Of a stretch of DNA of 64,000 bases, positions 40,518 through 62,807 are shown piece by piece. Under the pieces are notes generated by a model that made no database searches, had not been told where the DNA came from, and saw nothing but the letters and a program-made list of their open reading frames with translations. A program made the translations under genes and the position numbers. Position 1 is the first letter of the stretch. Every line of letters begins with the position of its first letter. This stretch comes from Pseudomonadota bacterium. GTDB taxonomy: Bacteria > Pseudomonadota > Gammaproteobacteria > Burkholderiales > Burkholderiaceae_C. The DNA is taken from assembly GCA_040387875.1 (NCBI GenBank), contig JAZKCX010000039.1, forward strand, positions 2,127 through 66,126, read 5' to 3'.

Positions 40518-40522
40518 GCGGC

Positions 40523-41744: not shown

Positions 41745-41944
41745 ACTGGCTGGTCTCGTGCAAGCAGGCCGCCGAGCTGCTGTCCATCTCGCAGGACGAA
41801 CCCCTGGGCCTGATCAGCCGGCTGCGGCTGCGCGCCCATTTGTCGATGTGTGAAAACTGCCGCCAGGTGGAGGCACAGTTCAACTCCCTGCGCTCCCTCA
41901 CCGGCCAGTGGATGGAAGACGAGGCGGGTCAGCGCAAAGACTAA
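41741..41944 (+). CDS. zf-HC2 anti-sigma factor-like small protein
   Basis: The ATG overlaps the sigma gene stop (ATGA). The H-x3-C-x2-C motif (HLSMCENC) is present. At 67 aa the protein has no TM segment. Confidence 0.6.
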   Translation: MNWLVSCKQAAELLSISQDEPLGLISRLRLRAHLSMCENCRQVEAQFNSLRSLTGQWMEDEAGQRKD

Positions 41945-41947
41945 CGC

Positions 41948-45335: not shown

Positions 45336-47186
45336 TTAGCCGGACTCGATTTTTCGCTTTTCCACCCTGCAGAATTGGTAGGCGTAACCTTTCGCACCGA
45401 TAAACGCCTTCTGCAGGATGCAACTACCTGCGTTGATGGAAAAACCACGGCTTTCGGCTGTTTTTGACGCGCCCTCCAGAAGCGTTGTGTTTTCCGATTC
45501 CAACTCCTGTTGTCGTTGCGGATACAACTGGAATTCACACGTCACATCACTGGAATTTTGTTTGACTCGGGGAATGACCGCCCCGGCGAGCTCGGTAGTT
45601 CGATTGATATAGCGGGTCACCAATTTGCACGCTGTACTGCCAGTGCGGATCTGGTTGCGTTGCAACCAACGGTTCAGTCTGGAAAGCCTGTGGGCGCGCG
45701 CATCCACACGCCCTTGAACAATTGCGTACAAACCCCCTGGACGACTGTCAACGAGGGATTCCGCACGCTCCCAGAAAACTTTTGATTGTGAAATTTCAGT
45801 GAGCGATACAAACACCAGCTGTTCAGGGAAGGCGGGCGTGATCCAGGCAAAAGGAGGGCCGATCAACAACACCATCGATGAATCGGGCTGGCTGATCTTG
45901 GGCACCTCCACTGCATAGCTTTCGCTGGACCACGGCGCATGGCCCCACGTTTCAAACCGCACTAGCGTTACCAGCATCGAAAACACCAGCATCATTGGCA
46001 CAAACCGGTTTGCCTTTGTAGGGCCGACGAGCGCCCTGAAAGCCAACCAGCACGCGATCGGCAACAACATTTCTATTGATACCGCATACCGACCAATGCT
46101 GAACAACAACATCCAAGTGAAGTAGCTGGTGGCCAGGAATATCAGGAAAGGACGAATACCATGGGATTCCCCTGTGGCGGGCAATCCTTCCGCGCGATTC
46201 GATCTTGCACCGGAGATTTTCCTGAGAAGATTTCGGAAAAACCAGACCCAGAGCAGGGTGTAGCTGATCGGCCATAGCCACAGCGTCAGCTTTATTTCAC
46301 CCATCCGCTGCGGCGAGACGGCTACCACATAGGGGTAAAAAATGGCTTCGACAATGCTGCGTGGCATCCAGCTTGTATCGCGCAGGGAGCTTTGTTCAAA
46401 AAGCTCTGACCGAAAAACCGAATTGAACATCGGAAATACCGGGTTTCCGAAATGCTGCCACATCGTCAAATACCAAAACCCGCCCGTCACCGCCATGCCG
46501 AACAACACGCCCAGGCCAAAAATGGTCGTCACCGCCAGGCGCTGTGGTAACGGTAGCCTGAGACAGAGCAGGCTGACAAAAATACCCACCGCGTAGATCG
46601 CATTGGTTAATTTGAGCCCGGCACCCATACCCACCAGCAGGGCGGCCAGAAAGCAGATGCCCAGGCCACTTCGCCAATCTGATTCCAGTGTTTTCCACGA
46701 CTTGAGAATCAGATACAGCGCACCCAGATTCAGCAAGGCTGTTGTGTTGTCGCCCATGGTGTTACCCAACTCGGACAGGAAGGTCGGTGCAAGACACCCG
46801 CCCAGTGCCAGCAACACCACCACATGCGTTTTCGTATCGGTGGGCAGTAACAGGCGCGCAATGGCCAGCAACAAGCCAAAATTCAGCCCATGTAGACACC
46901 CCATGATGAAACCTGTCGCGGGGGGCCACAGGTATTTGGACATCCAGTAATAAGGAATATCCAGCAGCGGATTGAAGTAACTTTGGATTCCCGCAGGCGC
47001 CAGATCAGTGCCTGTTCGGTTGGTCAGATAGGCCCATGGGTTGTAGACATGGTAATTCTGAAGATCCCAGTTGGCATCCTGTCCTGCATACAGCGAAAGC
47101 AGGCCAAACAGCGCAGCACCCACAGCCCACAAAGGAATCTCGTACCCACACAGTCTTGGCGCCAGAAATGCAGATGGTCTGATCAT
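45336..47186 (-). CDS. polytopic membrane protein, candidate GT-C-fold glycosyltransferase (GT87/DUF2029-like, uncertain), with a ~190 aa C-terminal soluble domain
   Basis: A 616 aa protein with about 11-12 hydrophobic helices in the first ~420 aa. An acidic/aromatic loop (DANWDLQNYHVYNPWAY) follows helix 1, as in GT-C enzymes. The gene is clearly lower in GC than its neighbours. Confidence 0.45.
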   Translation of the reverse strand: MIRPSAFLAPRLCGYEIPLWAVGAALFGLLSLYAGQDANWDLQNYHVYNPWAYLTNRTGTDLAPAGIQSYFNPLLDIPYYWMSKYLWPPATGFIMGCLHGLNFGLLLAIARLLLPTDTKTHVVVLLALGGCLAPTFLSELGNTMGDNTTALLNLGALYLILKSWKTLESDWRSGLGICFLAALLVGMGAGLKLTNAIYAVGIFVSLLCLRLPLPQRLAVTTIFGLGVLFGMAVTGGFWYLTMWQHFGNPVFPMFNSVFRSELFEQSSLRDTSWMPRSIVEAIFYPYVVAVSPQRMGEIKLTLWLWPISYTLLWVWFFRNLLRKISGARSNRAEGLPATGESHGIRPFLIFLATSYFTWMLLFSIGRYAVSIEMLLPIACWLAFRALVGPTKANRFVPMMLVFSMLVTLVRFETWGHAPWSSESYAVEVPKISQPDSSMVLLIGPPFAWITPAFPEQLVFVSLTEISQSKVFWERAESLVDSRPGGLYAIVQGRVDARAHRLSRLNRWLQRNQIRTGSTACKLVTRYINRTTELAGAVIPRVKQNSSDVTCEFQLYPQRQQELESENTTLLEGASKTAESRGFSINAGSCILQKAFIGAKGYAYQFCRVEKRKIESG

Positions 47187-47564: not shown

Positions 47565-48062
47565 TCAGTTCAGCAGGCGCTTGGCTTCGAGCCGGCCGCA
47601 CTTGTCCTGAATCACCACGTTGCTGTCGATGACGCGGTTTTTGCCTTCGCGGGAGCTCACGTCCAGCAGCATGCGGGCCGGAATGGCGCGGCAGCCGATG
47701 GGCTCGCACAGGGCTTCTTCGCCGTTTTTCACCAGCGAGGCCTCGACCACAAAATCGCCGCCCGAGGCAATCGTCAGTCCGCCGAACTTCACTTCCTTGG
47801 TGTTGCGGAAATACACAAACTGTTCGGTGGTGGCCTTGCCCAGTTTCACCATGGCCGATTTGCTGTCGATCACCACCGCCACGATTTTCTGCTCGGGCAG
47901 CTTGACGATATCGACCGAACAACCTGCCGAGCGGGCATTGAACTTGGCCTTATCCGCATCGGAAATGAACTGCAGGCTGAGGTCGGGCGCCTGGGCCTGG
48001 GCAGCAAAGGCGGTGGCAAGGGCGAGTGCAACGACGGCAATTGAATGCGTCCGGAAGTTCAT
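47565..48062 (-). CDS. hypothetical secreted protein
   Basis: The ATG at 48062 has a GGAG Shine-Dalgarno sequence. A signal peptide ends in AQAQA, and the mature part carries 4 Cys. I recognise no family. Confidence 0.5.
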   Translation of the reverse strand: MNFRTHSIAVVALALATAFAAQAQAPDLSLQFISDADKAKFNARSAGCSVDIVKLPEQKIVAVVIDSKSAMVKLGKATTEQFVYFRNTKEVKFGGLTIASGGDFVVEASLVKNGEEALCEPIGCRAIPARMLLDVSSREGKNRVIDSNVVIQDKCGRLEAKRLLN

Positions 48063-48319
48063 TCTGGCTCCTGGGCAAGTGGCAAGGGCGCGTCGGGCTT
48101 TTGGCCCTTCCACCCCGGTATTCTGGCTGATATTTGCGGAAGGTCCTTTCCGCACGGTCTGCGGGCTGACTGCATCCCACCGTCGTCGCTTTCACAGGTA
48201 ATCAAATGTAAGCCCTCGAAGCATAGGCCACAACCGTGGCGGCCCCCTGCGGTAAATGGGGAACGGGCGGCCCAGCAGAGCGGTTGACCGGCACGAAGCC
48301 GGGTACCACCGGCGGGCGC

Positions 48320-50281
48320 CTACGCCAGCGAACGGAAAAGCGCCTCGAGCTTGCGCGCAGACTCTGCGGGGTTGGTGGCGGGGCTGTCTTCCAGCCGCTG
48401 CCGCATGCCCTGGCGCAGTGCTTCGAGTTCCTGCGGATGGCTGGCGTAGTGTTTGCAGCGGGCCACATATTCGTCGGTGCTGTGGGCGACCAGCTCGGTC
48501 AACGCCAGCGAAGTAAGCAGCGAAAGACTCACGCGCGAGACGTGGGTCTTGCCGGCCAGGGTGATCACGGGAATGCCCATCCACAGCGCCTCGATGGTGG
48601 TGGCGGTGCCGTGGTAGGGATAGGGGTCCAGCGCAATATCGGCCTGCTGGTACAGCGCCAAGTGCTGCGCAAAACCCATGCGCGCGTGCATCTGTACCCG
48701 GCCCAAATCAAAACCCATGCGCTCAAAACGCTGCAGTTGCTCGGTCTTGAGCACCGCGTCGGACAGCGGCGCGGCTTTCACAATCAGCCGGGTCTCGGGC
48801 ATCTCCTGCATGATGCGCGACCACAGCGCCAGGGTCTCATCGGACAGCTTAGCGAGGTTGTTGAAGCTGGCCAGCGTGAGGTAGCCGTTGCGCAGCAGCG
48901 GTGTGGGCCCGCAGGGCGGCAGTTCGGGTGGCTTGCGGATACACAGGAAGGGCGCCGGCATGCGCAGCAACTTTTCTGAATGGATCGCATCGGCCAGCTC
49001 GGGCGGGTCGGCAATCGCATCCGAGATGCGGTAGTCCATGGTCGAAAGACCCGTGGTGTTGGGATAGCCCAGGTAAGTCATCTGCACCGGCGCCAGACGC
49101 TGCCCGAAAATCGGCAGGCGGCTGTCGCCTGTATGGCCCGACAGGTCGATCAGCACATCGACCTTGTCGGCAACAATCTGCGCCGCAAGTTCTTTGTTGC
49201 TGCTGCGGCCCAGCTCGCGCCAGCGGTCGCCAAAATGCTGCTTGAGCTGCTCGGTCAGGCCGTCCGACTTGTCTCCGGCGTTGTAGAGCACGATATCGAA
49301 CTGTTTGCGGTCGTGCTGCATCAGCACCGGCGCAATGATCTGGCCGACCGGGTGCTGGTAGAAATCGGGGCTGACGTAGCCCACGCGCAGCTTGCGCTTG
49401 CCGAGGGCGAGCTTGGGTTTGGCAACCGCATCCGCCGTACCGGTGTGCCAGCCACGCGTCCACGCGACGTGTTCGCTGTAGATGTAAGCCGGGTCGTGCG
49501 CCTGGTAGTTGAGCATCAGCAGGTAGTTGGACACCGCCGTGGTGTTGGACGGGTTGCCCTGGGCACTGGAACGGAACAGCTCGGTGGCACGCGCAATATC
49601 GCCATTGCGGTAACACATGCCGCCCAGAAAGGTGCTTGCAGGCGTGTAGTCGGGAAACTTTTCCAGGCACTCGGTCCAAAGCGCCCGCGCTTCGGCGAGC
49701 TGGCCGGTTTCCTGATGGGCCCGGCCCAGCAGAAAGTAGCTGCGGTCGGAGTGTTCCGCCGCATGGAAGACCTTGCAAAAAGGCAAGGCATCGCTCCAGC
49801 GGTTTTGCCGGGCCAGGAGCTCGATCAGGTTGGACTGCGCCAGCCGCATGCCGGGCTGCAGGATAACGGCCTCGGTCAGGTGTTCCAGCGCTGCTTCAAA
49901 CTCGTGCAGTTCGGTCAGCACATAGCCCAGGTTGTTACGGGCCTGGCCCACCTCAGGCCGCAAGGCCACCGCACGGCTGTAGCACATTTTGGCGGCGGGG
50001 AAATCACGCAGCGTCGAATAACAGTTGCCCAGCGACAGCACTGCGTCGTAGCCCAGCTTGTCCTGGTCAAACAATGGCCGCAGCAAAAAGATCGCGTCTA
50101 CCGAGCGACCATTTTTGTTGAGATAGTCCGAGAGTGCGGCATGCGCTTCGGTGTTGTCCGGAGCGAAGGCGAAGGCCCGCAGGTAGGCAGCCTTGACGCT
50201 GTCAATGGAGGTGCCAGGCTGCTGCGACAGGCGCCGGGCCTGCAGCAGTGCCGCCGCAAAGCGTACTTCGTCGTTGTTCAT
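48320..50281 (-). CDS. TPR-repeat protein with a C-terminal GT41 (SPINDLY/OGT-type) glycosyltransferase domain
   Basis: The N-terminal ~280 aa are TPR repeats. The C-terminal half is collinear with OGT catalytic lobes ([75 protein letters not shown]). Confidence 0.8.
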
Positions 50282-50515
50282 GCGTTGGTGTCTGATGAAG
50301 CAGGTGAACGGGGTGGCGGGCACACGCCCGCGTGCCCCCGCCTGCCATTATGCGGACTTCGCAACCAGTGTTTTGCCTGCGTGCCAGCGCCACCGCAGCG
50401 GCCAAAAAAATCCTGTAAGAAAGGGCGGCCTGTCCCTACAAAGAAGCACCGCAACCTGAATGATCAGTACCGTGCGGTGTCGTTCAGTCATCTCAATTTC
50501 CTATTGGAGTTTTCA

Positions 50516-50803
50516 ATGATCGCTAACCAAGCCAAGTTCGCCGCTTCCTTCGCCCTGACCGCCGCCACGCTCGCGCTGGCCGCAACCGCCTTCGCCGCCG
50601 ACGCCCCCAAGGGCTCCAGCGGCAAGGCCGTCGCCGCCAAAGACAAGGTGCATTGCTACGGCCTGCATGAGTGCAAGGGCAACAGCGCCTGCAAGACCGC
50701 AGAGCACAGCTGCAAAGGCCAGAATGCCTGCAAGGGCCATGGCTTTGTGGCTTCGACCGCATCGCAGTGCCTGACCAAGGGCGGCACCATCGGCGACCTG
50801 TAA
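50516..50803 (+). CDS. DUF2282-type Cys-rich precursor peptide with a Sec signal peptide (bufferin BufA-like)
   Basis: A GGAG Shine-Dalgarno sequence lies 6 nt upstream. The product is 95 aa, with a signal peptide ending in AFA-ADA. The core [33 protein letters not shown]...QCLTKGG has 6 Cys. The gene lies immediately upstream of the DUF692 gene. Confidence 0.75.
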
Positions 50804-50875
50804 TCTGGTCTGACCTTGCCCCTGACATCCTGCCTGCAAGGGCGGGATGTTTTTTCATTTCCGGGTGTCTTCACC

Positions 50876-52600
50876 ATGCCTAAAAACCTCTACTCCCTGA
50901 CGGTGCCACACGCCGGTTTCGGTCTGGGTTTGCGAACCACCCACTACCCCGATTTTCTTGCATGCAGGCAGCCACTGGACTGGCTGGAAATCATCACGGA
51001 CAACTACCTGGTGGATGGCGGCAAGCCGCTGGTGACGCTGGACGCGATCCGCCGCGACTACCCCCTTGCCATGCATGGCGTGGCCCTGTCACTGGGTGCG
51101 CCTGCGGGCCACGACCGCGCCTATCTGAAGAAGGTCAAGGCGTTGGCAGACCGCATTGATCCCCTCTGGATTTCCGACCACCTGTGCTGGATCGGGCCGG
51201 AGCCGCAGCAACTGCACGACCTCTATCCCCTGCCTTACACCGAAGAAGCCGCACGCCACCTGATAACGCAGATCCGCCAGGTCCAGGACGTATTGCAGCG
51301 CCGCCTGGTAGTGGAGAACGTCTCCAGCTACATTGATTTCGCCTACTCGGCAGCCACCGAATGGGAGTTTCTGAGCCATATCGCGAACGAGGCCGATTGT
51401 TCCCTGCTGGTCGATATCAACAACATCTATGTCAGCAGCGTGAACCACGGCTTTGACCCCCTCGCCTATTTGCGTGGCCTGCCGGCGCAGCGTATTCAGC
51501 AGTTCCATCTGGCTGGCCATTCCAACGAGGGCACCCACATTGTTGACACCCACGACCACCCGGTGGCCGAGCCCGTGTGGGAACTCTACGCGCAGGCGTG
51601 CCAGATGTTTGGCCCAGTGACCACCATGATCGAGCGGGACGACCACATCCCGCCTTTGCGGGAGTTGATTGAAGAGCTGGACCGTGCCCGTGGCATTGCC
51701 GCCGCCCTGGAGAACGAACAGCCCCGCAGCGCGTACCATGCCTCGGCGTTGCGCTGGGCTGCGCCCCTCGCAGCACAAGACCCGGGCTTGCAGGCAATGC
51801 GGCAGCGCATGGCCACCTACGTCTTGGGCCCCGCTAACGGCACCGAAGCCATGGCGCCTATGGTGCGCCAAGCGCCGGGTGTGGATGTGCCTCTGCGCCT
51901 TTCCATCTACCACCACGCCTACCGCGCCCGGCTGGCCGAAGTGCTGGCGGACACCTTTGAGAAAACCGTGCTCTATATGGGCTCGGACAGTTTCACGCAG
52001 CATGCCCGTACGTTTGCGGAGCAAAACCCGCCGCTCACCCGAAGCCTGGGTCGGTACGGCGCGAGCTTTCCGGCCTACCTGGCGGCGCTTTATCCCCACA
52101 ACCCGGAGTTGCGCGAGCTGGCCTACCTGGACTGGGACTTGCGCAGCTGTTTTGACGGTGCCGATGCGCCCGCCCTGGATGCGGCGGCCGCGGCGGCCGA
52201 CGCACAGCAATCGTGGTTGCTCCATACGCCCGCAATACACCCCAGTCTGGTGCTGCGCGAAATTACCAGCAACGTGGTGCAGCTCTGGAAGTCCATCGAC
52301 GAAGACCAGGAGGTTCCCGCACCGGTCTATCGCGATACCCCCATGGCTTTGGCAGTCTGGCGCAAAGGGCTGCAGCCACACTTCAAAACGGTAGAGGGCA
52401 TGCAGGCCGTCTGGCTGCGCCGGCTGATGGCAGGTGCGTCCCTGTCGCAAGCCTGTGGTGAATTTGAGGGCACAGAGCACATGCCTGAGATCGCCGTATT
52501 CGGCCAGTGGCTGGCTGAATGGCTGGAAGACGAACTGCTGAGCCCACCACCGCTGCTGCAGCCATTGGCACACGCTGCAGCAGCAGAAGCCGTCAGTTAA
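50876..52600 (+). CDS. fused DUF692 (MNIO, MbnB/BufB-like) and DUF2063 (MbnC/BufC-like) protein
   Basis: Residues 1 to about 285 are DUF692-like (GFGLGLRTTHY, LEIITDNY, HGVALSLG, SDHLCW, ENVSSY, DINNIYVS, FHLAGH, IERDDHIPPL). Residues from about 310 to the end are DUF2063-like (RLSIYHHAYRARLAEVLADTF, RSLGRYGASFPAYL). The ORF is continuous at 574 aa. Confidence 0.8.
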   Translation: MPKNLYSLTVPHAGFGLGLRTTHYPDFLACRQPLDWLEIITDNYLVDGGKPLVTLDAIRRDYPLAMHGVALSLGAPAGHDRAYLKKVKALADRIDPLWISDHLCWIGPEPQQLHDLYPLPYTEEAARHLITQIRQVQDVLQRRLVVENVSSYIDFAYSAATEWEFLSHIANEADCSLLVDINNIYVSSVNHGFDPLAYLRGLPAQRIQQFHLAGHSNEGTHIVDTHDHPVAEPVWELYAQACQMFGPVTTMIERDDHIPPLRELIEELDRARGIAAALENEQPRSAYHASALRWAAPLAAQDPGLQAMRQRMATYVLGPANGTEAMAPMVRQAPGVDVPLRLSIYHHAYRARLAEVLADTFEKTVLYMGSDSFTQHARTFAEQNPPLTRSLGRYGASFPAYLAALYPHNPELRELAYLDWDLRSCFDGADAPALDAAAAAADAQQSWLLHTPAIHPSLVLREITSNVVQLWKSIDEDQEVPAPVYRDTPMALAVWRKGLQPHFKTVEGMQAVWLRRLMAGASLSQACGEFEGTEHMPEIAVFGQWLAEWLEDELLSPPPLLQPLAHAAAAEAVS

Positions 52601-54314
52601 TCAGCGGCCGGTAGTAATTGGCCGGTGGCGGAGCAACGTCTTCGACCGGCGGCCGGGACTCCACAGGCGGAGGCGGCTGCACCGCAGGCCGGAATTCGCG
52701 TGCCGGTGGCGAGCTGACCAGCGGCCGCAACTCGACCGCTGGCCGGGGTGGTACGGGTGCCGCCAGGCGAGGCTCAATGTCCAGCGCGGCCACCGGTGCG
52801 CCAAGCGCGGAGCTGCGCTTGAGCACCGGACTGCGTGGTTCTGGCGGGAGGGGCACCGAAGCCGTGTTGCAGTTGGCGTTGTCGGTACGGCAGACCGACT
52901 CGCGCAGGCTTTCTGAAAATATGTCGTTGGCATCGGCTTTGGACACCACGCTGTGAATCCAGCCGTTGTCGCTGACGCCATCGACCAGCAACCTGCCGGA
53001 AGTCCTGGCCAGCCGGAATTCGGCAATGCGCAGATCAAACACGCCGTCTGCCAGATCCAGCAGCAGATTGAAATGCTCAAGCTGAGCGTCCAGCACATTG
53101 GGCAGTGTTTCGCGGCCAAACCCGAGCAGCCGGCGTTTGGACTGGTAGGCGAGACCCGCCTCGCTCACCGCTTCCATCAGTTGCTTGACCCGATCCGCGC
53201 CGGAAGAGGTACGCCCCCAGGAAGCAGATGTCACCTCCACCAGATTGGCGCGCGCAGCCTCCAGCCGGGCCTCTTGTGCGCCTACTTCCACCAGCGCCGC
53301 CTTGATGCGCGACTGCACATCAAAGCCGTTACCCAGGTTGAAGTTCAACTCCAGCGCTGCCCGCGTGGGCTCGGTTGTCAGGTCGCGGTTGTCTTTGGTA
53401 CGGGACACCACTGCATCCAGCGTGGGAAAGCGGCCGGATTTTTCACGGTCCACGTTCGCCTTGGCGCGCTCTATGCGGCCGCGGGCCTCGCCCAGCTCGG
53501 CGCTGTTGGCCTCGGCAATCTGAATGGCCTGGGCCAGCGAACCCACCGCCCACTCCTTGGGCGTGGCCAGCGTCGGCAACCCGGCGGCATTGGGCACAAA
53601 CTTGAAATAGGTTTCAAACTTGGCCAGCGCATCGATCAGCAGGGCATCAAATTCCTGCCGCTTGGCGGCTGCGCCCGACCGGCGCGATGCCGCAAGGCGC
53701 GCATCACCCTGACCGGCAGCACCCAGCTCGACCTTGCGCTGTTCGGCGCGGGTCAACTCATCAAGAACCAGCGTGGAGCGGGCGGCAATGCGCTTTTTCA
53801 GATCAAAGCGCTGCACCTGGAGGTAAGTCGTGATGCCATCAAGCACCACCTTCTGGCTGGCAACCCGCAAACCCTCTTCCAGCGCACTGGAGTTGGCAGT
53901 GGCAGCCCGCTCGCGGGCATTGATGCCACCGGCATCCAACAGGCTGACCCGCGCGCTGGCGGTCAGGGCTGTAAAGCGCTGCGAGGACGTGTTGCCGGGA
54001 GACGTAAAGGTGCTGGAGCGACCGGTCGCAGTGGCCAGTGAAAAACGTGGAAACCGGGCCCGTTTGGCGGCTTCGGTCTCAAACCCGCTGCTGGCCAGAC
54101 TGGCCTGCGCGGCCAGAACCTCGGGATGGTCCTGGGCCATATTGAGTATGCCCAGCTTGACCTTGTCCGAGTACTCGACCGTACCCAGCGAACGGCCTGA
54201 GAGTGTGGTGGAGGGCGCCAGAACCGGCGCGCCATCGTCCTGCGCATGCGCGTTGAGGGCGGCCACGAACAGGGCAACCGCAAGATGCAGCGGAGAGGGT
54301 CTGAACACGTTCAA
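52593..54314 (-). CDS. TolC-family outer membrane protein of the T1SS, with a 90-aa Pro-rich C-terminal extension
   Basis: The TTG start overlaps the MFP stop (TTGA). A signal peptide ends in AHAQ, and two TolC repeat halves are present. The tail is rich in Pro and Arg. Confidence 0.85.
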   Translation of the reverse strand: MNVFRPSPLHLAVALFVAALNAHAQDDGAPVLAPSTTLSGRSLGTVEYSDKVKLGILNMAQDHPEVLAAQASLASSGFETEAAKRARFPRFSLATATGRSSTFTSPGNTSSQRFTALTASARVSLLDAGGINARERAATANSSALEEGLRVASQKVVLDGITTYLQVQRFDLKKRIAARSTLVLDELTRAEQRKVELGAAGQGDARLAASRRSGAAAKRQEFDALLIDALAKFETYFKFVPNAAGLPTLATPKEWAVGSLAQAIQIAEANSAELGEARGRIERAKANVDREKSGRFPTLDAVVSRTKDNRDLTTEPTRAALELNFNLGNGFDVQSRIKAALVEVGAQEARLEAARANLVEVTSASWGRTSSGADRVKQLMEAVSEAGLAYQSKRRLLGFGRETLPNVLDAQLEHFNLLLDLADGVFDLRIAEFRLARTSGRLLVDGVSDNGWIHSVVSKADANDIFSESLRESVCRTDNANCNTASVPLPPEPRSPVLKRSSALGAPVAALDIEPRLAAPVPPRPAVELRPLVSSPPAREFRPAVQPPPPVESRPPVEDVAPPPANYYRPLIN

Positions 54315-55642
54315 GGCTCCTGGAATGCTTCACGCTGGGCCTTCAGCACCGGCCTGAGAATGTACCAAATGAAGGGGTCACGCCCGACCAGCAGATCGAC
54401 CTCAACCTCCATACCCGCCGTGATGGCCCGCTCGGGAATGCCCACGTACTCCTTGTCGGTACTGATCAGCAGCCGGTAGTAGGAGCGCACAGTGGGGTTG
54501 GTCGGGTCGCTGTCGGCATCGGCACCGACAAGGTTGACTTTCCCATTCACCGCGCCATAGCGCAGGAAATCGTAGGCGCTCACTTTGACGCGTGCTGTCT
54601 GTCCGGTGTTGACATAACCACGGTCACTGGGATTGAGCTTGGCTTCGATGATGATCTGCTTCTGGTCAGGCACCACTTCCATGATCTGCTCACCCGGCTT
54701 CACCACCCAGCCCGGGCTGGGGTTGCGCAGCCCCTTGATGATGCCGTCGGCCGACGCGCGCACGACCGTGCGCGAACGCTGGATTTTGGCACGTGAAAGG
54801 TCTTCGCTCAGACTCGCAATCTGCCGCTCGGCAGTGGCCAGTTCGTCAGAGGCTCGCCGGCGGTAACGGCCCTGCGCCTCGACAATTTTGCCTTGCGCTT
54901 CCGTAATGGCGGAACCGGCAGAGACCAACGCCTGCCGGGCGGTAGCAAGGTCGCCCCGTACGGCCTCCATCTGGCGCTGCTTTTCCAGGACCTCGAGTTG
55001 CGGAATCAGTTTTTCGTCCAGCAGTTGCTGGGACAGATCGACTTCTTTTTTGTAGAGCGCCAGCCGCGACGTCAGCCCATTGACCCGCTCCTGCTGCTCG
55101 ACCAGCTTGCTGCGGGCCTGCGCCAATTGCGACTCTGCGGTGTCCACCACGCCTTTTTGCTCCAGCGAGCGGGCTTCAAAAGCGCCCGATTCGGCCTGGA
55201 AGACCGATTCGTCAATGTCTTTGCCCAGCGCCGCGCGGGTAAAAGGTTTGCCCTGGCTTTCGGCCAGCAGGCGCGTACGCGTGGCCTGCAACGAGGCGTA
55301 GCGAACCGTCAGTTCTTCGAGGTTCAGGCTGTTACCGCCCAGATCAATTTCTACCAGCGGTTGGCCCGATTTGACTTTTTCACCTTCCTTAACAAGTACC
55401 GCACTGACAATACCACCCTCCAGGTGCTGCACCACCTTGACCTGGTCGGAGGGAATCACTCTGCCCGGCGCAATCACCACCGACTCCACCGGGAACCCCA
55501 GACCGAACGCGGCGAGAACAACCACCCCGCCCCACAAAAGCCATGAGGTGATGGATTTTTTTCTGGAATAGGGAAGCGCTTTGGTGGAGCTTGCAGGATT
55601 CTGCAAAACCAGCGGGAGGGTATTGGCGTTCTTGGAGTCCAT
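54311..55642 (-). CDS. HlyD-family type I secretion periplasmic adaptor
   Basis: An N-terminal TM, the HLEGGIV motif, a long coiled coil and a C-terminal barrel are present (443 aa). Confidence 0.9.
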   Translation of the reverse strand: MDSKNANTLPLVLQNPASSTKALPYSRKKSITSWLLWGGVVVLAAFGLGFPVESVVIAPGRVIPSDQVKVVQHLEGGIVSAVLVKEGEKVKSGQPLVEIDLGGNSLNLEELTVRYASLQATRTRLLAESQGKPFTRAALGKDIDESVFQAESGAFEARSLEQKGVVDTAESQLAQARSKLVEQQERVNGLTSRLALYKKEVDLSQQLLDEKLIPQLEVLEKQRQMEAVRGDLATARQALVSAGSAITEAQGKIVEAQGRYRRRASDELATAERQIASLSEDLSRAKIQRSRTVVRASADGIIKGLRNPSPGWVVKPGEQIMEVVPDQKQIIIEAKLNPSDRGYVNTGQTARVKVSAYDFLRYGAVNGKVNLVGADADSDPTNPTVRSYYRLLISTDKEYVGIPERAITAGMEVEVDLLVGRDPFIWYILRPVLKAQREAFQEP

Positions 55643-55676
55643 GGCTTCAATTCAAAGGTAGTGCGCTGATGCTGGA

Positions 55677-57530
55677 TCAGCTGTCCGCCGGCTCGGCAGG
55701 CGCAGAGGATTTCGGCGCGGCAGAAATTGCTGCGGTTGCCGCAGGCGCCGGCAACTTGACGCCGAACAGCTTGGGCACCATCACCGATGCGGAGCCACTC
55801 TCGACATTGCCCGCCCCGGTGACGTAATGCACCTGGCTGGCACTGGCCACAATACGCAGCGAGTGCGTCACCACAATGATGGTGCGGCTGCGGGCCGCAG
55901 CCATCAGCGCGGCAATCAGCGCCGTCTCCGCCTGGTAATCCAGGTCATTGCTGGGCTCATCCAGAATCACAACAGCCGGATCGCGCAGGAACAACTGGGC
56001 CAGCGCAAGCTTGCGGCGTTCACCCATGGACAGGCCCATGCCGCCCTCACCCAGCACCGTGCGGTATCCTGCTGGCAAGCGCGAAATAAAGTCGTGTGCA
56101 CCGGACAGGCGGCAGGCTGCAACAATTCTTTCGTCGGTCTGGTCGGGGGCGGCGCGGCGGAGGATTTCAATCAGCTCTCCGCCAAAAAGATATACCTCTT
56201 GCGACAGGATACTGATCCACTGAACCAGCTCTTCCCGGGCAAACTGCGACAGGTCATATTCATCAACCGAGATTTTTCCGTTGGTGGGGCTATACAGGCC
56301 CGCAACCAGTTTGACCAGCGTAGATTTGCCGGCGCCGTTTTTACCGACAATCACATGCAGACCACCGGGCCCGATTTCGAGATTGACGTTCTCCAGCACG
56401 GAGGCGGAGTTTTCGTTGAACTGAAAGCTGACTTCCTGCAGCCGGATTGCCCCGCGCGGCTTGGGCAACACAATGCCACCCGGGCGGCGATCCGTTGGTT
56501 CATTGAAGACGTTTTCAAGCCGCTTTGCGGCCTCGGTGGCGGTTGCAAGAGATCGCCAGTTGGAAGCCAGCCCCGCGACGGGAGACAGGGCTTTGGACGA
56601 CAACATGCTGGCGGCAATCAGACCGCCGACAGTCATCCATTGCTGCATGACTGCCAGAGCCCCGACCGACACCACCACAACGGAGAAAACCGACAGCATC
56701 ACAGTGGTCAGCTCCCGGGCGCGCTCTATCTCGCCGTTTTTTCGGAAACTCTCGCTGAGCCAGGCGTTGTAGTTCTGTTGCCACATCGCTACGACAGGCT
56801 GGTTGTGCCCCAGACTTTTCAGGGTTTCACGGGCCCGGCAAATCTCTGACGTCACCTGGTCCAGGCTACGTCCGCGGAGCACTTCTTCGACACGCCCGGC
56901 GCGTACTTCATCAGCCCACCACCAGGCAAAAAACGCAAGTACTCCCAAAAACAGCAAAAGCACTGGCAACAGCGGCCATGCCACCATGCCAATAATGACG
57001 AGTGCAAAAAGAGCCACGGGCATGTCAAAGATGGAGGTCATCAGCCCACCGGTCACTGTTGCACGCACTGCGCCCACGTCGCGGAACAACAAAAACCATG
57101 CTGTGGCAGGCCGGGACTCCAGCATGCGCAAAGGCCGCTGCAGCATGGACTGCAACAAGGCGTTCGACACCCCATGGTCAACAATTGCGCCGGCATCGCG
57201 CAGCGACCGGGACCGCTTATTGCGCAGCCACAACTCAATCAGCAAAAACACAAAAATACCGGCCAGCAGGGCGACCAGTGTGGAGTAGCCACTGCGACCA
57301 ATCACGCGGTCGTACACCTGTAGCGTGAAAATTGACGGCAACAACCCGAACAGACTGATGGGCAGCGACCACCAAGCCGCCTGCTTCACCAAGGGGTAGG
57401 CACTGGTAAATGCGTCGTGCAGCGCGCCACCGTAGGGAGTGACCGCAGAGTCGGTAGCCGTCTTGTTCACTAACTGACGGGGCAACAGGAATTTGAGCAT
57501 GGTTGTTACAGGAAGATAGTCGAGCGCCAA
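55677..57530 (-). CDS. type I secretion system ABC permease/ATPase (PrtD/HasD-like, no C39 peptidase domain)
   Basis: The TMD carries LQVYDRV. Walker A GKNGAGKST, signature LSMGERRK, Walker B VVILDEPSNDLD and H-loop VTHS are present. The maximal ORF starts at TTG 57530, and the first ATG is at 57500. Confidence 0.9.
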   Translation of the reverse strand: MALDYLPVTTMLKFLLPRQLVNKTATDSAVTPYGGALHDAFTSAYPLVKQAAWWSLPISLFGLLPSIFTLQVYDRVIGRSGYSTLVALLAGIFVFLLIELWLRNKRSRSLRDAGAIVDHGVSNALLQSMLQRPLRMLESRPATAWFLLFRDVGAVRATVTGGLMTSIFDMPVALFALVIIGMVAWPLLPVLLLFLGVLAFFAWWWADEVRAGRVEEVLRGRSLDQVTSEICRARETLKSLGHNQPVVAMWQQNYNAWLSESFRKNGEIERARELTTVMLSVFSVVVVSVGALAVMQQWMTVGGLIAASMLSSKALSPVAGLASNWRSLATATEAAKRLENVFNEPTDRRPGGIVLPKPRGAIRLQEVSFQFNENSASVLENVNLEIGPGGLHVIVGKNGAGKSTLVKLVAGLYSPTNGKISVDEYDLSQFAREELVQWISILSQEVYLFGGELIEILRRAAPDQTDERIVAACRLSGAHDFISRLPAGYRTVLGEGGMGLSMGERRKLALAQLFLRDPAVVILDEPSNDLDYQAETALIAALMAAARSRTIIVVTHSLRIVASASQVHYVTGAGNVESGSASVMVPKLFGVKLPAPAATAAISAAPKSSAPAEPADS

Positions 57531-57754
57531 AGTTGGCGTTTCACGGGCCTGTTGGGTGGGTTACTGCCGAGGCCTACGACTAAAGAGTGACATACAAAAC
57601 AACGATTGCGAGTGTACGCCGACTGTACCGTGCTGGGCCTGGAATAGGCACCGGTTTTTCCCTCCTATTGTTCCATCTCGTGCGCGATGGCCGGCAGTAG
57701 GAACAGCAAGGGAGGTAGACCCGACCCGGTACAACGGGTGGCTCACACTCCATG

Positions 57755-57796
57755 AAAAAAGCCGCCGTACTGCCCTGAGGCAGCCGTGCGGCTTTT
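57755..57796 (-). terminator. rho-independent (bidirectional-looking) terminator between cargo gene P2 and the ABC gene
   Basis: The sequence AAAAAA-GCCGCCGTACTGCC-CTGA-GGCAGCCGTGCGGC-TTTT lies 85 nt downstream of the P2 stop. Confidence 0.6.
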
Positions 57797-57880
57797 AGAA
57801 CTGTGCAGCAATGGGCTGCTGCGAATTCTTGAGGGCAGGGAGTTGCAACCCCCTTAACGCCCCGTAACTAGCAAATCAAA

Positions 57881-59755
57881 TCAGCGGTCCAGCAAACCAC
57901 CCAGTGCACCAGTGACAGGGTTGGCTTCTGCGCCGCCCAGGCTGGTCACGGGGATAGGCAGGCCACCGCCCAAACCACCACCCAGCGACCCAAGCAGATC
58001 GCCCGGGATCAGGTCCGTTGGTACCGGCAGGCCACCGCCAGCTCCGCCCAGAGAACCGACCAGCTCAAGAACGGGTTCGAGCAAGCCGCCCGCGCCGCCT
58101 GTGAGCAGATCGGTAGGTACAGGCAGGCCACCAGCGCCGGCGCCCAGCAAGTCGGTAGGAACCGGCAAGCCCCCACCGCCCAGCGAGCCGAGCAGGGAAG
58201 TCAGCGGGCCGAGAGCGCCGCCGGCATCACCACCCAGCAAGCCGCCGAGACCACCCAAACCACCCGCGTCAAGCGCGCTTGCGCCCGTGGTTGCGCCGCC
58301 GCCGATGACGCCGCCACCCAGCAGTGCAAGAACCGGCGCAAGGAGGCCGCCACCGTCAAGCGAACCGGTACCGCCGAGCAGACCGCCAAGCAGGTTGCCG
58401 CCCACCTGTGCGCCGCCTTCGCCACCACCTGCGCCAACGCCGCCGGAGACAGAGCCCAGACCGCCATTGAGGAAGTTGCTCAAACCGTTTGTCAGCTGAT
58501 CAACCTGCAGATTCGCGGGTCCGATCAGCGATTCCGTAGCGCCTTCGCCCAGGATTCCGTCGACGATGGGTTGCAGAACATCGTTGCCTACGGAGGTGAC
58601 GCTGAAGCCCAAGTTGTCCACCGGGTCGAGCTGATTGGGGGCGTCGAATCCAGGGTCAATACCGAGGGACTCGGTGATGTCGTTACCAGTGTCCGTAACG
58701 GTTTTGACCAGATCGTCCAGAGGTTGCAGCGAACCACCGATGCCAGCGCCTGCAGCGCCCAGTGCACTGCCGTCCAATGCATCGGTCAAGTTGTCGACCA
58801 ACTGCGCCGTAGGATCCAGGAGACCAGGCTTTTGCGCACCTGGACCGGTACCCGTACCGGTGCCGGAGCCAGTGTCCGTACCGGTATTGGTACCCGTATC
58901 GGTTCCCGTGTCTGTACCGGTGTTGGTTCCAGTATTGGTGCTGGTGTTAGTGCCCGTATCGGTACTGGTATTGGTTCCGGTATTGGTGCTCGTGCTCGTG
59001 CCAGTACTGGTACTCGTGCTCGTATTCGTACCAGTGTTGGTGCCCGTGGTAGTACCGGTGCTGGTGCCGGTATCCGTACCCGTGTTCGTGCCCGTGTTGG
59101 TATTGGTGCTTGTGCCCGTGCCTGTACCGGTCGCTGTTGCGGTGCTGGTATCTGTGCCGGTTCCAGTGCTGGTGCCCGATCCCGTACCGGTTCCGGTGTT
59201 GGTGCCGCCCGAGCCGCCGTCGTCGTCATCGTTCAGCGCAGCGGCCAAACCGGCCAGACCCAGAAGTGCCAGAGGCAACCATCCCAGACCTTCGGTACCT
59301 GCAGCGCCCTTTTTCTTCACAGCAACCGATGCGGCATCGGTGGCGTCGGGTGCGGCCACGAACAGGTCGCCCGTGGCCATATCGACCGTCACTTGCTCAA
59401 CACCGGGGGACAGCGTCTTGACACCAATAACCGCATCCGATCCACCGGAGAAAACGCCGTTCAACGGGGTTTTGCTGCCGCCAGGGCCGGGGAAAGTTAC
59501 GTTGGCCGAGCCGCCTTGCGGAACAATAACGCGGTCACCAGCCAACAGCGAAGTATTTCCTTCGGCCGCAAACCTTGCGCTTCCGCGCACAACTTCCACG
59601 CCGGGAGTAGCACCAGACAGAACGCCTAAGCCTCCCGCCTGAGAAGCTGCTACGGGAGCGGCAGACGCGGCAGCAGGGCTTGCCTGGGCGAGGGTCGTGA
59701 TGTCTTCACCAGCGGTCAACGGGCCTTTCAGGCTCGTTTCTTGAGTTGCGATCAT
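57881..59755 (-). CDS. T1SS-linked repetitive Cys-free acidic protein, paralog P2
   Basis: The ATG at 59755 is preceded by AAGGA. There is no signal peptide. The layout is: conserved N-terminal domain, KKK-hydrophobic-DDDD segment, a 119-aa X-Thr array, an acidic D/L-rich domain shared with P3, then a Gly-rich C-terminus with [10 protein letters not shown] repeats. Confidence 0.8.
58847..59203 (-). repeat. X-Thr dipeptide array in P2 (60 consecutive units, 6-nt period)
   Basis: Hand check of aa 196-314 of the 635-aa ORF. Every even position is Thr, twice Ser, with no register shift. The odd positions are only G, N, S, D, A or T. Confidence 0.9.
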
Positions 59756-60137
59756 AAAAAATCCTTTGGAAAGCAGGATATGGGGCACTAAAACAATGCC
59801 TTGATTATAGTTATCGGGCAGGGAGTGGAGAAACTTTAATGCTTTTGTTTATGGCAATTCTCATCAAATTGTGTGACTTAATTCATGAAATCGATTGCAA
59901 AGTATCTACCCGCTTGTCCCAGAGAGGGATTTAGTCACCGATTAGGGTAAAGTTTAAGTGGGGCAGATGGTTGGAGTAATACTAATGTTTGGAGAGCCAA
60001 AACCGGCACCCCAAAAGCCCGCCATGGCAGTGTTTCTAAAGGGTGAAACTCGATGCTGCAACAGGCTTGGATGGCCAAAGCAGGAGTTCAGCGTCGACCT
60101 ATTAAAAGCATTACTTCAAAAGCACAAAACAAAATGC

Positions 60138-60166
60138 AAAATGGCTGCCTACGAGGCAGCCATTTT
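60138..60166 (-). terminator. rho-independent terminator after cargo gene P3
   Basis: The sequence AAAATGGCTGCCT-ACG-AGGCAGCCATTTT lies 58 nt downstream of the P3 stop. Confidence 0.6.
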
Positions 60167-60223
60167 GGCGAGAAGACAAAGCGCACCAAACCTATGTGAA
60201 ATTTGCGTGCGCCAAGCCTCGAT

Positions 60224-61642
60224 TTACAACATCGACAATATGGGCGCCAGCGGAGATGGGTTGCTGGCCGCATCGGTGGAGCTGGAGATTGGCGGTATGG
60301 CCCCTGGCGTGCTGCCGTTGCCGGACACGTTCTCCACAAACTCGGAGCCTGAACCCACAACCACGCCAGGTGTGTTTTCTCCGGTCGCGGTATTTCCAAG
60401 GGCACCCACCGGCGCCAAAACGCTACCAGCACCGCCCAAACTACCGAACATGCCGGTCAGCGGCCCCAGCAAACCACCCACTCCTGCAGTCTCGCCCACA
60501 CCCAGCAGACCCGAAGAGCCCAGCGCGTTGGTCAGCCCATCCGTCACGAAATCGACCTGCAGGTCTGCGGGACTGATCAGGGTTGCCGTTACGCCATTGC
60601 CCAGGATGGAATCCACCAGCGGAGTGACCGGAACAGACACCACGCCGCCGGTGACATCCGCGGCAAGTGCATCCACTGAATCCAGAGAGTTGGGGTCATC
60701 GGCAAAAAACTCTTCGCCAACGACAGGCGCCAACAGGCCGTTGCCAGCATCGGTAACCGATGCAACCAAGTCATCTACCGGTTGCAAAGATGTACCCAAA
60801 CCACTTGCCAACCCGCCGAGCTCCGCTTTTGCGGCGCCGTCGGCCGGCGCTTCTGCAGCGCCGCTGGGCCCTTCAAGGGCATCGGTCAGATTGTCAACCA
60901 GCGTCGCGGTTGGATCGAGGAACCCCATGCCCTCTGCACCCGTCCCCGTATCGGTGCCAGTTCCGGTCCCGGTATCGGTGCCAGTCCCGGTGCCCGTGCC
61001 AGTGTCCGTACCAATTCCGGTTCCGGTATCCGTGCCAATACCTGTGCCCGTACCCGTATCGGTGCCAACACCGGTACCCGTGCCAGTGCCGGTGTCGGTA
61101 TTGTCCCCACCGCCTCCACCACTACCAGCGAGACCGGCCAGTCCAAGCAAGCCCAAAGGCAGCAGCCAACCCAGCCCGCCGTCGGCCACAGCAGCCTTTT
61201 TCCTGACCAGCAAGGACGACTCGATCTGGGTGAAATCCGGGGGAGCAACAATAAAGTCACCAGCAGCCAGGTCAACCACCACCTGGTCAACACCCGGGGC
61301 AATGGTCTTGACGCCGATCACCGCCTCAGAACCACCAGAAAAGACCCCCACCAAAGGATTGGGATTGCTGGCAGAAGCGGGAAAAGCCACATTGGCCGAC
61401 CCACCTTCGGGCACGATGACCCGGTCACCCAACTGCAGCGCAGCGGACCCTTCGGCAGGCAAGCGGGTTCCTCCGCGGACGATTTCCACGCCCTTAGAGG
61501 CATCGGACAGCACGCCCAGCATGGGCACCGCCTGGGGGGTTGCCGCAGCCGTAGCAGCAGGGGCAACCGCAGCCTGCGCCACCAAGGCATCCAGGCCTGG
61601 TGAGCTTAGAACTTCGGCACTCGTATTAGGGGTAGATTCCAT
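60224..61642 (-). CDS. T1SS-linked repetitive Cys-free acidic protein, paralog P3
   Basis: The ATG is preceded by an AAGAGG Shine-Dalgarno sequence. It has the same architecture as P2: N-terminal domain, RKK-hydrophobic-GGGGGD segment, a 54-aa X-Thr array, the shared [14 protein letters not shown] domain and a Gly-rich tail. Confidence 0.8.
60941..61102 (-). repeat. X-Thr dipeptide array in P3 (27 units)
   Basis: aa 181-234. The even positions are Thr, apart from V192, I202 and I210, which are also beta-branched. Confidence 0.85.
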
Positions 61643-61844
61643 GGGAAACCTCTTAATTGCTCAGAATAACGTCGTACAAGTATACGTAAGGCACGAATCA
61701 AGGCGTACCAGGTCGTACAACCGACTCGCAATTATGTGATTTATTTGCTGTTCCGGGAATTAATTGCCGGAGCGAAAAATAATACGCTCGCGAAATGTGC
61801 TTCAAATTCAATCAAAAACCTATACAAAACCCGCAATTGAAGCC

Positions 61845-62807
61845 CTAGCGTTGCCCGGTGAAACGCTCACGCAGCGCGGAAAGTTCGCCCACAACGCCCC
61901 GGCGGAATACCAGCACACACAACACAAAAATGGCACCCATGATGACAGTGACCCAAGAGCCCACCTTGTCTGCGAGCTGATTCTGCAACGCAACAATCAC
62001 CGTGGCGCCCACCGCAGGCCCGAGTACGGTACCCAGCCCACCGAGCAGCGTCATCAGCACCACCTCGCCCGAGGTATGCCAGTGCGCATCGGTTAAAGAA
62101 GCCAGCTGAAACACCAGCGCCTTGATAGAGCCCGCCATCCCGGCAAGCGCCGCCGAAATGACAAATGCCAGCAACTTGTAGCGATCTACGTCGTAACCCA
62201 GCGATATTGCGCGTGGCTCGTTTTCACGAATCGCCTTCAAAATCTGGCCGAAGGGCGAGTGGATAGTCCGGTAGATCAGCGCAAAACCCAACATAAACAG
62301 ACCAAATACAAAGAAATACATGCTGATGTTGTCGGAAAGGTCAATCAGTCCGAAAAGGCGGCCACGTGGCACCCCCTGCAGGCCATCCTCACCCCCAGTT
62401 TGCGGCAGCTGCAGCACCAAAAAGTAAACCAGCTGGGCCAGCGCCAGCGTGATCATGGCAAAGTAAATACCCGCCCTGCGGATAGCCAGCAGGCCAAAAA
62501 CCAAACCCAGAAAACCTGCTACCACCGTCCCCGCCAGCACACCCAACTCAGGCGTCCAGCCTTGTTCTTTGCAAAGCCAGGCACACACATAGGCCGCCCC
62601 GCCAAAAAAAGCGGCATGTCCAAAAGACAAAAGACCGGCAAAACCCAGCAGCAGATTGAATGCGCAGGCAAACAGCGCAAAACACAACACTTTCATGAGA
62701 AAGGTTGGGTAGAACAAAAAAGGCGCAATGCTGCCCAGCACCAGCATGCCAGCGAACATCCAAATAGCGCGGCGCGATGCAGCAGAAGTCGACAAGGGTT
62801 TCGTCAT
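61845..62807 (-). CDS. branched-chain amino acid type ABC transporter permease (LivM-like)
   Basis: A polytopic protein with the LLSFGHAAFFGGAAY motif. I chose the ATG at 62807. Confidence 0.85.
   Translation of the reverse strand: MTKPLSTSAASRRAIWMFAGMLVLGSIAPFLFYPTFLMKVLCFALFACAFNLLLGFAGLLSFGHAAFFGGAAYVCAWLCKEQGWTPELGVLAGTVVAGFLGLVFGLLAIRRAGIYFAMITLALAQLVYFLVLQLPQTGGEDGLQGVPRGRLFGLIDLSDNISMYFFVFGLFMLGFALIYRTIHSPFGQILKAIRENEPRAISLGYDVDRYKLLAFVISAALAGMAGSIKALVFQLASLTDAHWHTSGEVVLMTLLGGLGTVLGPAVGATVIVALQNQLADKVGSWVTVIMGAIFVLCVLVFRRGVVGELSALRERFTGQR

Follow-up and report, generated by a model that had tools for sequence, protein, structure and literature searches.

The window, a 64,000-nucleotide stretch of contig JAZKCX010000039.1 within which all positions below are numbered, carries the genes of a type I secretion system (T1SS) next to two genes, P3 and P2, encoding acidic low-complexity proteins, and it raises the question of whether these proteins are exported by the neighbouring pump and, if so, whether they leave the cell or remain attached to it. 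The sequences of P2, P3 and their relatives make it likely that the proteins of this family are the cargo of the adjacent pump. The complete model, in which the cargo would in addition be retained by an N-terminal plug, was built from sequences and predicted structures and is given a probability of about 0.55. Its second part taken separately, retention is regarded as somewhat more probable than full release or external re-attachment.

The pump genes and the P2 and P3 proteins

In the list of open reading frames (ORFs), five co-oriented genes lie on the minus strand: P3 (61642-60224), P2 (59755-57881), the gene of an ATP-binding cassette (ABC) permease/ATPase (57530-55677), that of a HlyD-family type I secretion adaptor (55642-54311) and that of a TolC-like outer-membrane factor (54314-52593). 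All five had been placed at these coordinates in the original prediction. The last three are recognised from their sequences as a type I secretion pump of the class whose ABC protein has neither a C39 nor a C39-like domain. The ABC protein, of 617 aa as the longest ORF, contains the Pfam domains ABC_membrane and ABC_tran, and its best NCBIfam matches are the LssB, PrtD and HlyB T1SS permease/ATPases (E-values of 1e-110 to 1e-88), all of them under the subfamily cut-offs (for PrtD, 321.6 bits for a curated cut-off of 510.15). The profile matches begin at model position 140 for LssB, 147 for HlyB and 11 for PrtD, the alignment to the solved HlyB structure starts at residue 162 and that to Aquifex PrtD covers residues 27-559. 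Even in the longest possible ORF, the membrane domain begins after only about 50 residues, too few to hold a domain of the C39 or C39-like type, and the lack of this domain, which had been claimed before, is a real feature of the predicted protein and not an artefact of the start codon. The annotated orthologue is of 607 aa, and this length suggests that the real start is the ATG at 57500.

The adaptor (443 aa) matches TIGR01843 with 341 bits (cut-off of 208.65) over positions 2-421 of the 422 of the model. The channel protein (573 aa) matches Pfam OEP with 107 bits in two stretches and TIGR01844 with 116 bits, under the 225-bit cut-off of the latter. The stop codon of the adaptor gene and the TTG start of the channel gene share four nucleotides as TTGA (...CCTTGAACG), an overlap already described and read again here in the sequence. 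Residues ~450-573 of the TolC-like protein (52593-52960, minus strand) form a Pro/Arg-rich C-terminal tail of ~120 aa (…PPPPVESRPPVEDVAPPPANYYRPLIN), which typical TolC proteins do not have; this tail was also found in the related locus L001 and, in a shorter form, in L008.

The original prediction described a type I secretion operon preceded by the two cargo genes; only the ABC, HlyD and TolC genes form a tight operon. P3 and P2 are each followed by their own terminator-like hairpin with a U-tract on the minus strand (60137-60167, folding energy of -22.9 kcal/mol, z = -5.8, after P3; about 57751-57796, -29.8 kcal/mol, z = -2.9, after P2) and by AT-rich gaps of 468 and 350 nt, respectively, to the next gene, so that the cluster is read as about three predicted transcription units. 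An Rfam scan of positions 52000-62500 gave no match, a sigma-70 promoter scan remained at background level, and the k-mers common to the regions upstream of P3, P2, the ABC gene and a third paralog revealed no common regulatory motif.

The putative cargo proteins P3 (472 aa) and P2 (624 aa) contain no cysteine and few basic residues (K+R = 9 in P3 and 12 in P2) for 49 and 53 acidic ones (D+E), which results in net charges near -40, and glycine makes up 18% of P3 and 24% of P2. Their N-termini, read directly, are acidic or neutral and do not show the n and h regions of a signal peptide. A regular expression for the strict RTX (repeats-in-toxin) nonapeptide GGxGxDxUx found none in either protein, and no HemolysinCabind, Ig or cadherin domain was matched at E<=0.1, the reporting limit of the Pfam and NCBIfam searches of both proteins. 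On all these points, namely the composition, the lack of a Sec signal peptide and the lack of canonical RTX, Ig or cadherin repeats, the original prediction is borne out.

The N-terminal regions of P2 and P3 are 62% identical. In P3, which matches the hidden Markov models (HMMs) of the family N-terminal domain (hereafter N-domain; E=2e-51) and of its helical module (E=2e-44), a predicted all-beta, retention-module-like domain (aa 43-148; 61199-61516, minus strand as all the following) is followed by a Gly/Ala/Leu-rich hydrophobic segment (aa 155-173; 61124-61180) with RKK before it and GGGGGD after it. The hydrophobicity score of this segment, a simple sum of Hessa insertion dG values, is +3.5, a marginal value if the segment were to anchor the protein in a membrane. 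Further on are a low-complexity (Thr-Gly/Asp)n spacer (60935-61123, with Tandem Repeats Finder (TRF) arrays at 60939-61100), an acidic helical module of the type LDPxxxLVDNLTD...QVDFxTDGL (aa 237-372; 60527-60934) and the C-terminal motif AIPPISS...PLAPILSML (60227-60301), conserved in the family and a candidate secretion signal. P2 also matches these HMMs and follows the same plan, with a predicted all-beta, retention-module-like domain (aa 44-148; 59312-59626), a Gly/Ala/Leu-rich hydrophobic segment of 19 residues (59234-59290) between KKK and NDDDD, a (Thr-Xaa)n spacer (aa 175-307; 58835-59233, TRF arrays at 58854-59131), an acidic helical module (aa 308-427; 58475-58834; module HMM E=1.5e-40), a Gly/Leu-rich region with 10-residue repeats read from the translation (57962-58474) and the conserved C-terminal motif LPIPVTS (57884-57961), again a candidate secretion signal. 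The NCBI annotation of P3 begins at Met41; the P2 and P3 orthologues start at a matching Met, and the annotated start is probably too short.

Compared with Pfam and NCBIfam, P2, P3 and the third paralog showed nothing except composition-driven "serine-rich" noise, and when P2 and the N-domain profile were searched against PDB sequences, the outcome was weak composition matches to TxT antifreeze proteins or chance matches. An ice-binding role of the TxT-like repeat was considered and rejected, as homologues swap this segment for poly-Pro, (DA)n, (PTE)n or collagen-like sequence; from its sequence, the segment behaves as a spacer.

The protein family and its linkage to orthologous pumps

No name or annotation for any relative of P2 and P3 was found in the sources checked, and no description of the family was found in the literature. 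Its common plan was read from a family alignment (A1), and composition and hydrophobicity statistics were calculated for 30 members. A variable Ala-rich leader with an LLAQA motif precedes an all-beta domain of ~100 residues, after which come a basic patch (RKK/KKK), a Gly/Ala/Leu-rich hydrophobic stretch of ~18 residues and an acidic or Gly run. The hypervariable spacer that follows is (Thr-Gly/Asp/Asn)n in the window and poly-Pro, PT-rich, collagen-like, (DA)n or (PTE)n elsewhere. It leads to one to three copies of a ~120-residue acidic helical module (LQPVDxLV ... PNxLDPVD ... QVDFxTDGL), then to Gly/Leu-rich repeats and finally to the C-terminal signature [LIA]P-x-[ILV][ST]S, located 20-30 residues before a hydrophobic GLL-type end. 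Of the 30 members, 29 contain no cysteine, have 1 to 17 basic residues (K+R) and carry a net charge of -23 to -191; on inspection, no signal peptide was seen. As for the leader, a short h-h-A-Q-A motif (LVAQAA, TLAQAS, LLAQAT) is present ~20 residues from the N-terminus in most members, before the beta-domain; this region (P3 aa 1-40, 61523-61642) is disordered in the AlphaFold2 (AF2) model, and the NCBI start at Met41 would drop the motif.

The C-terminal motif is kept in at least 20 of the 30 members, including proteins devoid of the N-domain. Two such relatives combine a helical module with the C-terminal motif (L012 12073-12888 and L018 4063-5385) and a third (L028 14794-16392) combines LDPVTD repeats with it; none of the three has a signal peptide or a hydrophobic segment. 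The first two speak for a C-terminal route that does not depend on a signal peptide, and all three are candidates for freely released cargo.

The family is rare: an exhaustive HMMER search of 1.84 billion representative proteins with the N-domain profile yielded only 49 clusters at E<=1e-3, essentially all of Comamonadaceae/Burkholderiaceae, in which the domain always occupies residues ~40-180. In a one-genome-per-species scan carried out with a 5-sequence N-domain alignment, the domain was found only in uncultured Burkholderiaceae/Comamonadaceae metagenome-assembled genomes (MAGs), with several paralogs per genome. The window itself contains a third paralog (20540-22057, plus strand, 505 aa, N-domain HMM E=8.5e-33), located ~36 kb from the pump among housekeeping genes, between an APH-type kinase gene and htpG. 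In this protein the N-domain is followed by a spacer rich in Ser and Thr and by a tandem array of 12 GGEGGSPLDALTGGL repeats of 15 aa each (TRF, 45 nt x 11.8 copies), and there is no LPISS-type C-terminal motif. A distant member, P0059 (L020 1060-9079), adjoins a 2198-aa RCC1/WD40-repeat protein, and its other neighbours (HU, Peptidase_M15, thymidylate kinase and gyrB) give this locus a phage-like or reduced-genome flavour.

At least six related MAGs share the gene order LivM - P3-like - P2-like - ABC - HlyD - TolC, which taken alone is orthologous synteny only. ABC orthologues with 52-70% identity and ~600-615 aa are also present in cultured Comamonadaceae. Near the pump of Variovorax paradoxus, a 1053-aa protein matches the N-domain (E=5e-53) and the helical module (E=3e-27) and displays a (DA)n spacer of ~170 residues, GGDLL repeats and a ...TPITS...ILHGLLG end; its gene, at about 247.1-250.3 kb of JAUSXG010000001.1 in assembly GCA_030815855.1, lies upstream of OmpA-like, Mur-ligase-like, ABC, HlyD and OEP genes, and Tad pilus genes adjoin. 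In Corticibacter populi, a gene in the same position, whose (PTE)n spacer is cut by the contig end, encodes helical modules, GGLLGEDGLL repeats and an LPIST motif. In Hydrogenophaga crassostreae, on CP017476.1, the pump is followed by the gene of a 533-aa acidic protein without N-domain, with six GGVLDPVTDVVDGLVGGVG repeats and a GGGLLGGLLR end. The linkage of the family to the pump thus holds across genera with different flanking genes, and because it persists in this way it supports the assignment of P2 and P3 as cargo. A comparative survey for co-occurrence had been recommended with the original prediction, and it turned out positive in the MAGs and in the three species above. None of the searches assigned P2 or P3 to a characterised family that is exported in another way.

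In Variovorax, Corticibacter and Lampropedia, two genes are inserted between the cargo and ABC genes (L026 5949-9637; L027 2916-6608; L029 276-3943), one for an OmpA-family protein of ~170 aa and the other for a ~1000-aa protein with C-terminal Mur-ligase M/C domains, and the cluster adjoins Flp/Tad pilus genes. Paralogs situated elsewhere are often beside a divergent GerE-type regulator. This GerE/LuxR-type protein of ~200 aa, the N-terminal part of which has no Pfam match, is divergent to paralogs at two different loci (coordinates L004 8711-9316; L007 3478-4110; L003 8709-9296). In L007 it stands between two divergent family genes, and the window contains no homologue of it.

The N-domain fold and the retention model

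The AF2 model of full-length P3, calculated from the family alignment, contains an all-beta domain with a predicted local distance difference test (pLDDT) score above 90 for aa 41-130 and is of low confidence elsewhere; after this domain the chain is disordered or helical, the helices of the module having pLDDT values of 50-80. When this model was compared by Foldseek with 350,542 PDB chains, the top match was 5ix9, entitled "Cell surface anchoring domain" in the PDB (probability of 1.00, template modelling (TM) score normalised to the target of 0.67, root mean square deviation (rmsd) of 2.5 Å, 67 of 76 residues, E=0.07). An independent second AF2 model, of the P2 N-domain, was obtained from a deeper alignment of 28 sequences and has a core pLDDT above 90. 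Its top match was again 5ix9 (probability of 0.98, TM score (target) of 0.68, rmsd of 2.4 Å, E=0.63). With both models, 5ix9 was aligned over 67-69 of its 76 residues and all other Foldseek matches had an rmsd above 6 Å. RIN, whose structure is entry 5IX9, forms the N-terminal domain of MpIBP, an adhesin secreted by a type I system, and is described as a Ca2+-independent periplasmic plug that exceeds the TolC pore (PMC5550230). The retention module of LapA has been modelled on 5IX9, and the flexible and poly-Gly sequence after it is threaded through the TolC-like LapE (bioRxiv 10.1101/198937).

The two models suggest that the N-domain resembles, at the level of the fold only, the retention/plug domain of T1SS adhesins. 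The modules of P2 and P3 had been described as unrecognised, which remains correct for Pfam and NCBIfam families and no longer applies to the N-domain in view of this predicted resemblance. Across the family, the stretch from the beta-domain to the first helical module is never under about 65-80 residues, and from standard per-residue lengths we estimate that it suffices to span a TolC-type channel of ~140 Å.

In the model that we propose, the adjacent ABC-HlyD-TolC pump would have as its substrates P2 and P3 and also the paralog at 20540-22057 and the relatives of all three. The C-terminal ~30 residues, composed of [LIA]P-x-[ILV][ST]S, ~20 further residues and the GLL-type end, would be recognised by the ABC exporter, and the unfolded, Cys-free and very acidic chain would leave the cell C-terminus first. 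The N-terminal beta-sandwich of ~100 residues would fold before entering the channel and be too big to pass, as is the case for the RIN/retention module in MpIBP and LapA, and the protein would remain stuck in the TolC-like channel. The Gly/Ala/Leu segment and the low-complexity spacer of 65-170 residues would fill the channel, the acidic helical modules and Gly/Leu repeats would be exposed on the cell surface, and relatives without the N-domain would be released. Sequences and models taken together, the proteins of the family are probably exposed at the surface of the cell by a mode of display not yet described.

Several observations weigh against this model. The Foldseek E-values of 0.07 and 0.63 are not significant, and the matched structure, a beta-sandwich of small size, is only 17-18% identical in sequence. 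Neither the retention-module models of NCBIfam and Pfam (E<=0.1) nor PDB sequences matched the N-domain of P2 or P3. The known cargos with a retention module use a LapB-type ABC protein and Ca2+-dependent extracellular folding of RTX repeats, both of which are absent here. P2 and P3 are transcription units separate from the pump, most paralogs are not beside any T1SS, and three distant members have none within 10 kb, as read from the short contigs that carry them. Finally, the succession of R/K-K, a hydrophobic ~18-mer and an acidic run resembles an N-in/C-out signal anchor.

The evidence for cargo status is equally compatible with full secretion of P2 and P3, after which they would be released or re-attached outside via an N-domain that is no plug. 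The surface-layer proteins Sap of Campylobacter fetus and RsaA of Caulobacter are exported by T1SS and have a conserved, lipopolysaccharide-binding N-terminus and a variable remainder, and the many paralogs, conserved N-terminus and hypervariable passenger of the present family are of such a surface-coat-like layout. The ABC protein without the LapB-type N-terminal domain typical for retained adhesins and the weak Foldseek E-values point the same way. Against this explanation, the sole low-rmsd structural neighbour, found twice, is the periplasmic plug 5ix9, and the N-terminal domain is succeeded, as in LapA, by Gly-rich/low-complexity sequence of channel-spanning length. We regard external re-attachment or release of P2 and P3 as unlikely.

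The resemblance to a signal anchor leads to a second and still less probable explanation, in which P2 and P3 would be bitopic inner-membrane proteins inserted via Sec/YidC, with a cytoplasmic N-domain, a Gly/Ala/Leu transmembrane helix, a Pro/Thr-rich spacer that crosses the periplasm as in TonB or TolA and a periplasmic C-terminal part, and their position beside the T1SS would be incidental or due to a role other than that of cargo. In most members the net charge is positive upstream and negative downstream of the segment, AF2 predicts a helix there, many homologues have Pro-rich spacers, and several paralogs are paired with a divergent GerE-type regulator instead of a T1SS, all of which would suit such a topology. 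The segment is, however, marginally hydrophobic: its median summed dG is +2.8 kcal/mol, with 3 of 30 members at or below +1, while the genuine transmembrane helices of the ABC, HlyD and LivM proteins of the window range from -1.9 to +1.1, the value of +1.1 being that of the single-pass anchor of HlyD and the others reaching +0.9; the segment of the third paralog is weaker still (+5.3). Moreover, relatives with the same C-terminal modules have neither the hydrophobic segment nor a signal peptide, the cross-genus linkage to orthologous T1SS genes would be hard to explain, and the extreme acidity, the absence of cysteine and the conserved C-terminal motif suit T1SS cargo. It is because of the dG values, the N-domain-less relatives and the cross-genus linkage that the anchor is considered less likely.

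That the pump exports another substrate and that P2 and P3 are cytoplasmic or membrane-associated low-complexity scaffolds placed there by chance, as their separate transcription units and the many family members unlinked to a T1SS might suggest, is highly improbable, since family members and pump genes are neighbours in four genera whose flanking genes differ, the cluster holds no other candidate cargo and the fold match is to a T1SS-specific domain.

To our knowledge, retained "two-step" type I secretion has so far been tied to giant RTX adhesins with a LapB-type ABC protein and LapG/LapD-mediated release. A compact family with the plug and none of the other parts would make the plug a portable anchoring device, would add a rare non-RTX class of cargo to the pumps without a C39-like domain, and would make one ask by what means, if not by an RTX ratchet, export is driven and rectified. 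More tentatively, the family could stand for a hitherto unrecognised class of short, non-RTX retained cargo in Comamonadaceae, in which a plug in the TolC-like channel, a pump without a C39-like domain and a mucin-like, possibly glycosylated hypervariable spacer would be combined with acidic helical and Gly-Leu passengers forming a polyanionic surface brush. If such a class exists, retention in the channel could be uncoupled from the RTX/Ca2+ folding ratchet, the LapB-type ABC protein and LapG/LapD control, and a single pump would serve a family of at least three to six paralogs in each genome. The family is present in cultured Variovorax and Hydrogenophaga, in which these predictions are directly testable. 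Its members are probably a major and fast-evolving part of the surface of common freshwater and soil Comamonadaceae, and for this reason they would be relevant to attachment, grazing and phage interactions.

Neighbouring genes and comparison with known systems

A gene of the minus strand (48320-50323) encodes, according to Pfam, a protein with tetratricopeptide repeats (TPR) and a GT41 glycosyltransferase domain, and is possibly, with some uncertainty, accessory to the system. A GT41 homologue is directly 3' of the TolC gene in the closest relative (L009 12090-12278), and six sister loci (L001/L014, L002, L008, L010, L015 and L016) contain a GT2-TPR gene, located between the cargo genes or next to them. 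Given the Thr-, Ser- and Pro-rich spacers, glycosylation of the cargo is a reasonable idea, and if a class of retained cargo as outlined above exists the linked TPR-glycosyltransferases (GT41 here, GT2 in the sister lineages) might modify the cargo. The GT2-TPR genes have the coordinates 11385-12395 in L001 and 11368-12468 in L008; in L003-L006 a TPR-only protein is encoded after the paralog.

On the plus strand, the region 50516-52600 encodes a 95-aa precursor with a signal-peptide-like start, six cysteines and no Pfam match, followed by a 594-aa single ORF in which MbnB/TglH/ChrH (DUF692) is fused with DUF2063/HvfC_N. We take this cluster to be a bufferin-like one, producing a ribosomally synthesized and post-translationally modified peptide. 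The DUF692-DUF2063 fusion also flanks the T1SS in related MAGs. A separate efflux operon of the resistance-nodulation-division type (37404-44592, minus strand) consists of the genes of an AcrB-type pump (1037 aa), a HlyD_D23 adaptor (394 aa) and an OEP protein (487 aa), the last being the second TolC-like gene of the window. Two minus-strand ORFs of 616 aa (45336-47186) and 196 aa (47565-48155) have no Pfam match; the product of the latter contains a hydrophobic signal-peptide-like stretch (IAVVALALATAFAAQAQA) ~37 residues from the listed GTG start.

Among known systems, the cargo of HasDEF, PrtDEF and LipBCD pumps provides the first comparison. The ABC protein of the window resembles those of HasDEF-HasA, PrtDEF and LipBCD in having no N-terminal appendix, it aligns end to end with Aquifex PrtD, and an uncleaved C-terminal signal is expected in its substrates as in theirs. 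HasA and HasD are a precedent for a non-RTX cargo handled by an ABC protein lacking a C39-like domain (PMC8277102). The HasA, PrtDEF and LipBCD cargos differ from P2 and P3: they reach the medium as compact enzymes or as a hemophore, most of them carry RTX repeats, and they all lack a plug-like domain at the N-terminus, spacers of low complexity and the C-terminal motif of P2 and P3.

The TRP effectors of Ehrlichia are strongly acidic, Ser/Thr-rich tandem-repeat proteins that are exported by T1SS with a C-terminal signal and without canonical RTX repeats. They differ from P2 and P3 in that their sequences are unrelated, they are host-targeted effectors of obligate intracellular bacteria and they have no N-terminal retention-like domain.

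A further comparison is with LapA and MpIBP, retained RTX adhesins with a retention module and a LapEBC-type T1SS. P2 and P3 resemble them in an N-terminal beta-sandwich predicted to be similar to the RIN (5IX9) fold, in Gly-rich or flexible sequence after it, in putative C-terminal export through ABC-MFP (membrane fusion protein)-TolC-like genes and in predicted tethering in the outer-membrane channel. The core of the ABC protein scores best against the LssB-type profile, and JGI and KEGG label its orthologues "LapB". A LapB-type ABC protein bears an N-terminal domain of its own of ~125 aa (bioRxiv 10.1101/198937), which is missing in the ABC protein of the window. A LapG-regulated adhesin was considered and rejected: the [T/A/P]AA[G/V] site of LapG, with its di-alanine, is not conserved (GAAG in P2, KAAV in P3, and QAG, SAG, TAG or SGG in homologues), and no LapG or LapD gene was found among the genes inspected in the window and in the related loci. 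The proteins of the P2/P3 family are of 430-1050 aa, in contrast to the thousands of residues of the known adhesins, they contain neither an Ig-like extender array nor an RTX beta-roll (no Pfam domain at all), and they have an extra Gly/Ala/Leu hydrophobic segment. The original prediction had put the system forward as a candidate for an undescribed one; in view of the predicted fold of the N-domain, it is better called a new form of retained type I secretion than wholly undescribed, a form that, as modelled here, works like LapA/MpIBP retention yet departs from most of the features by which that family is recognised.

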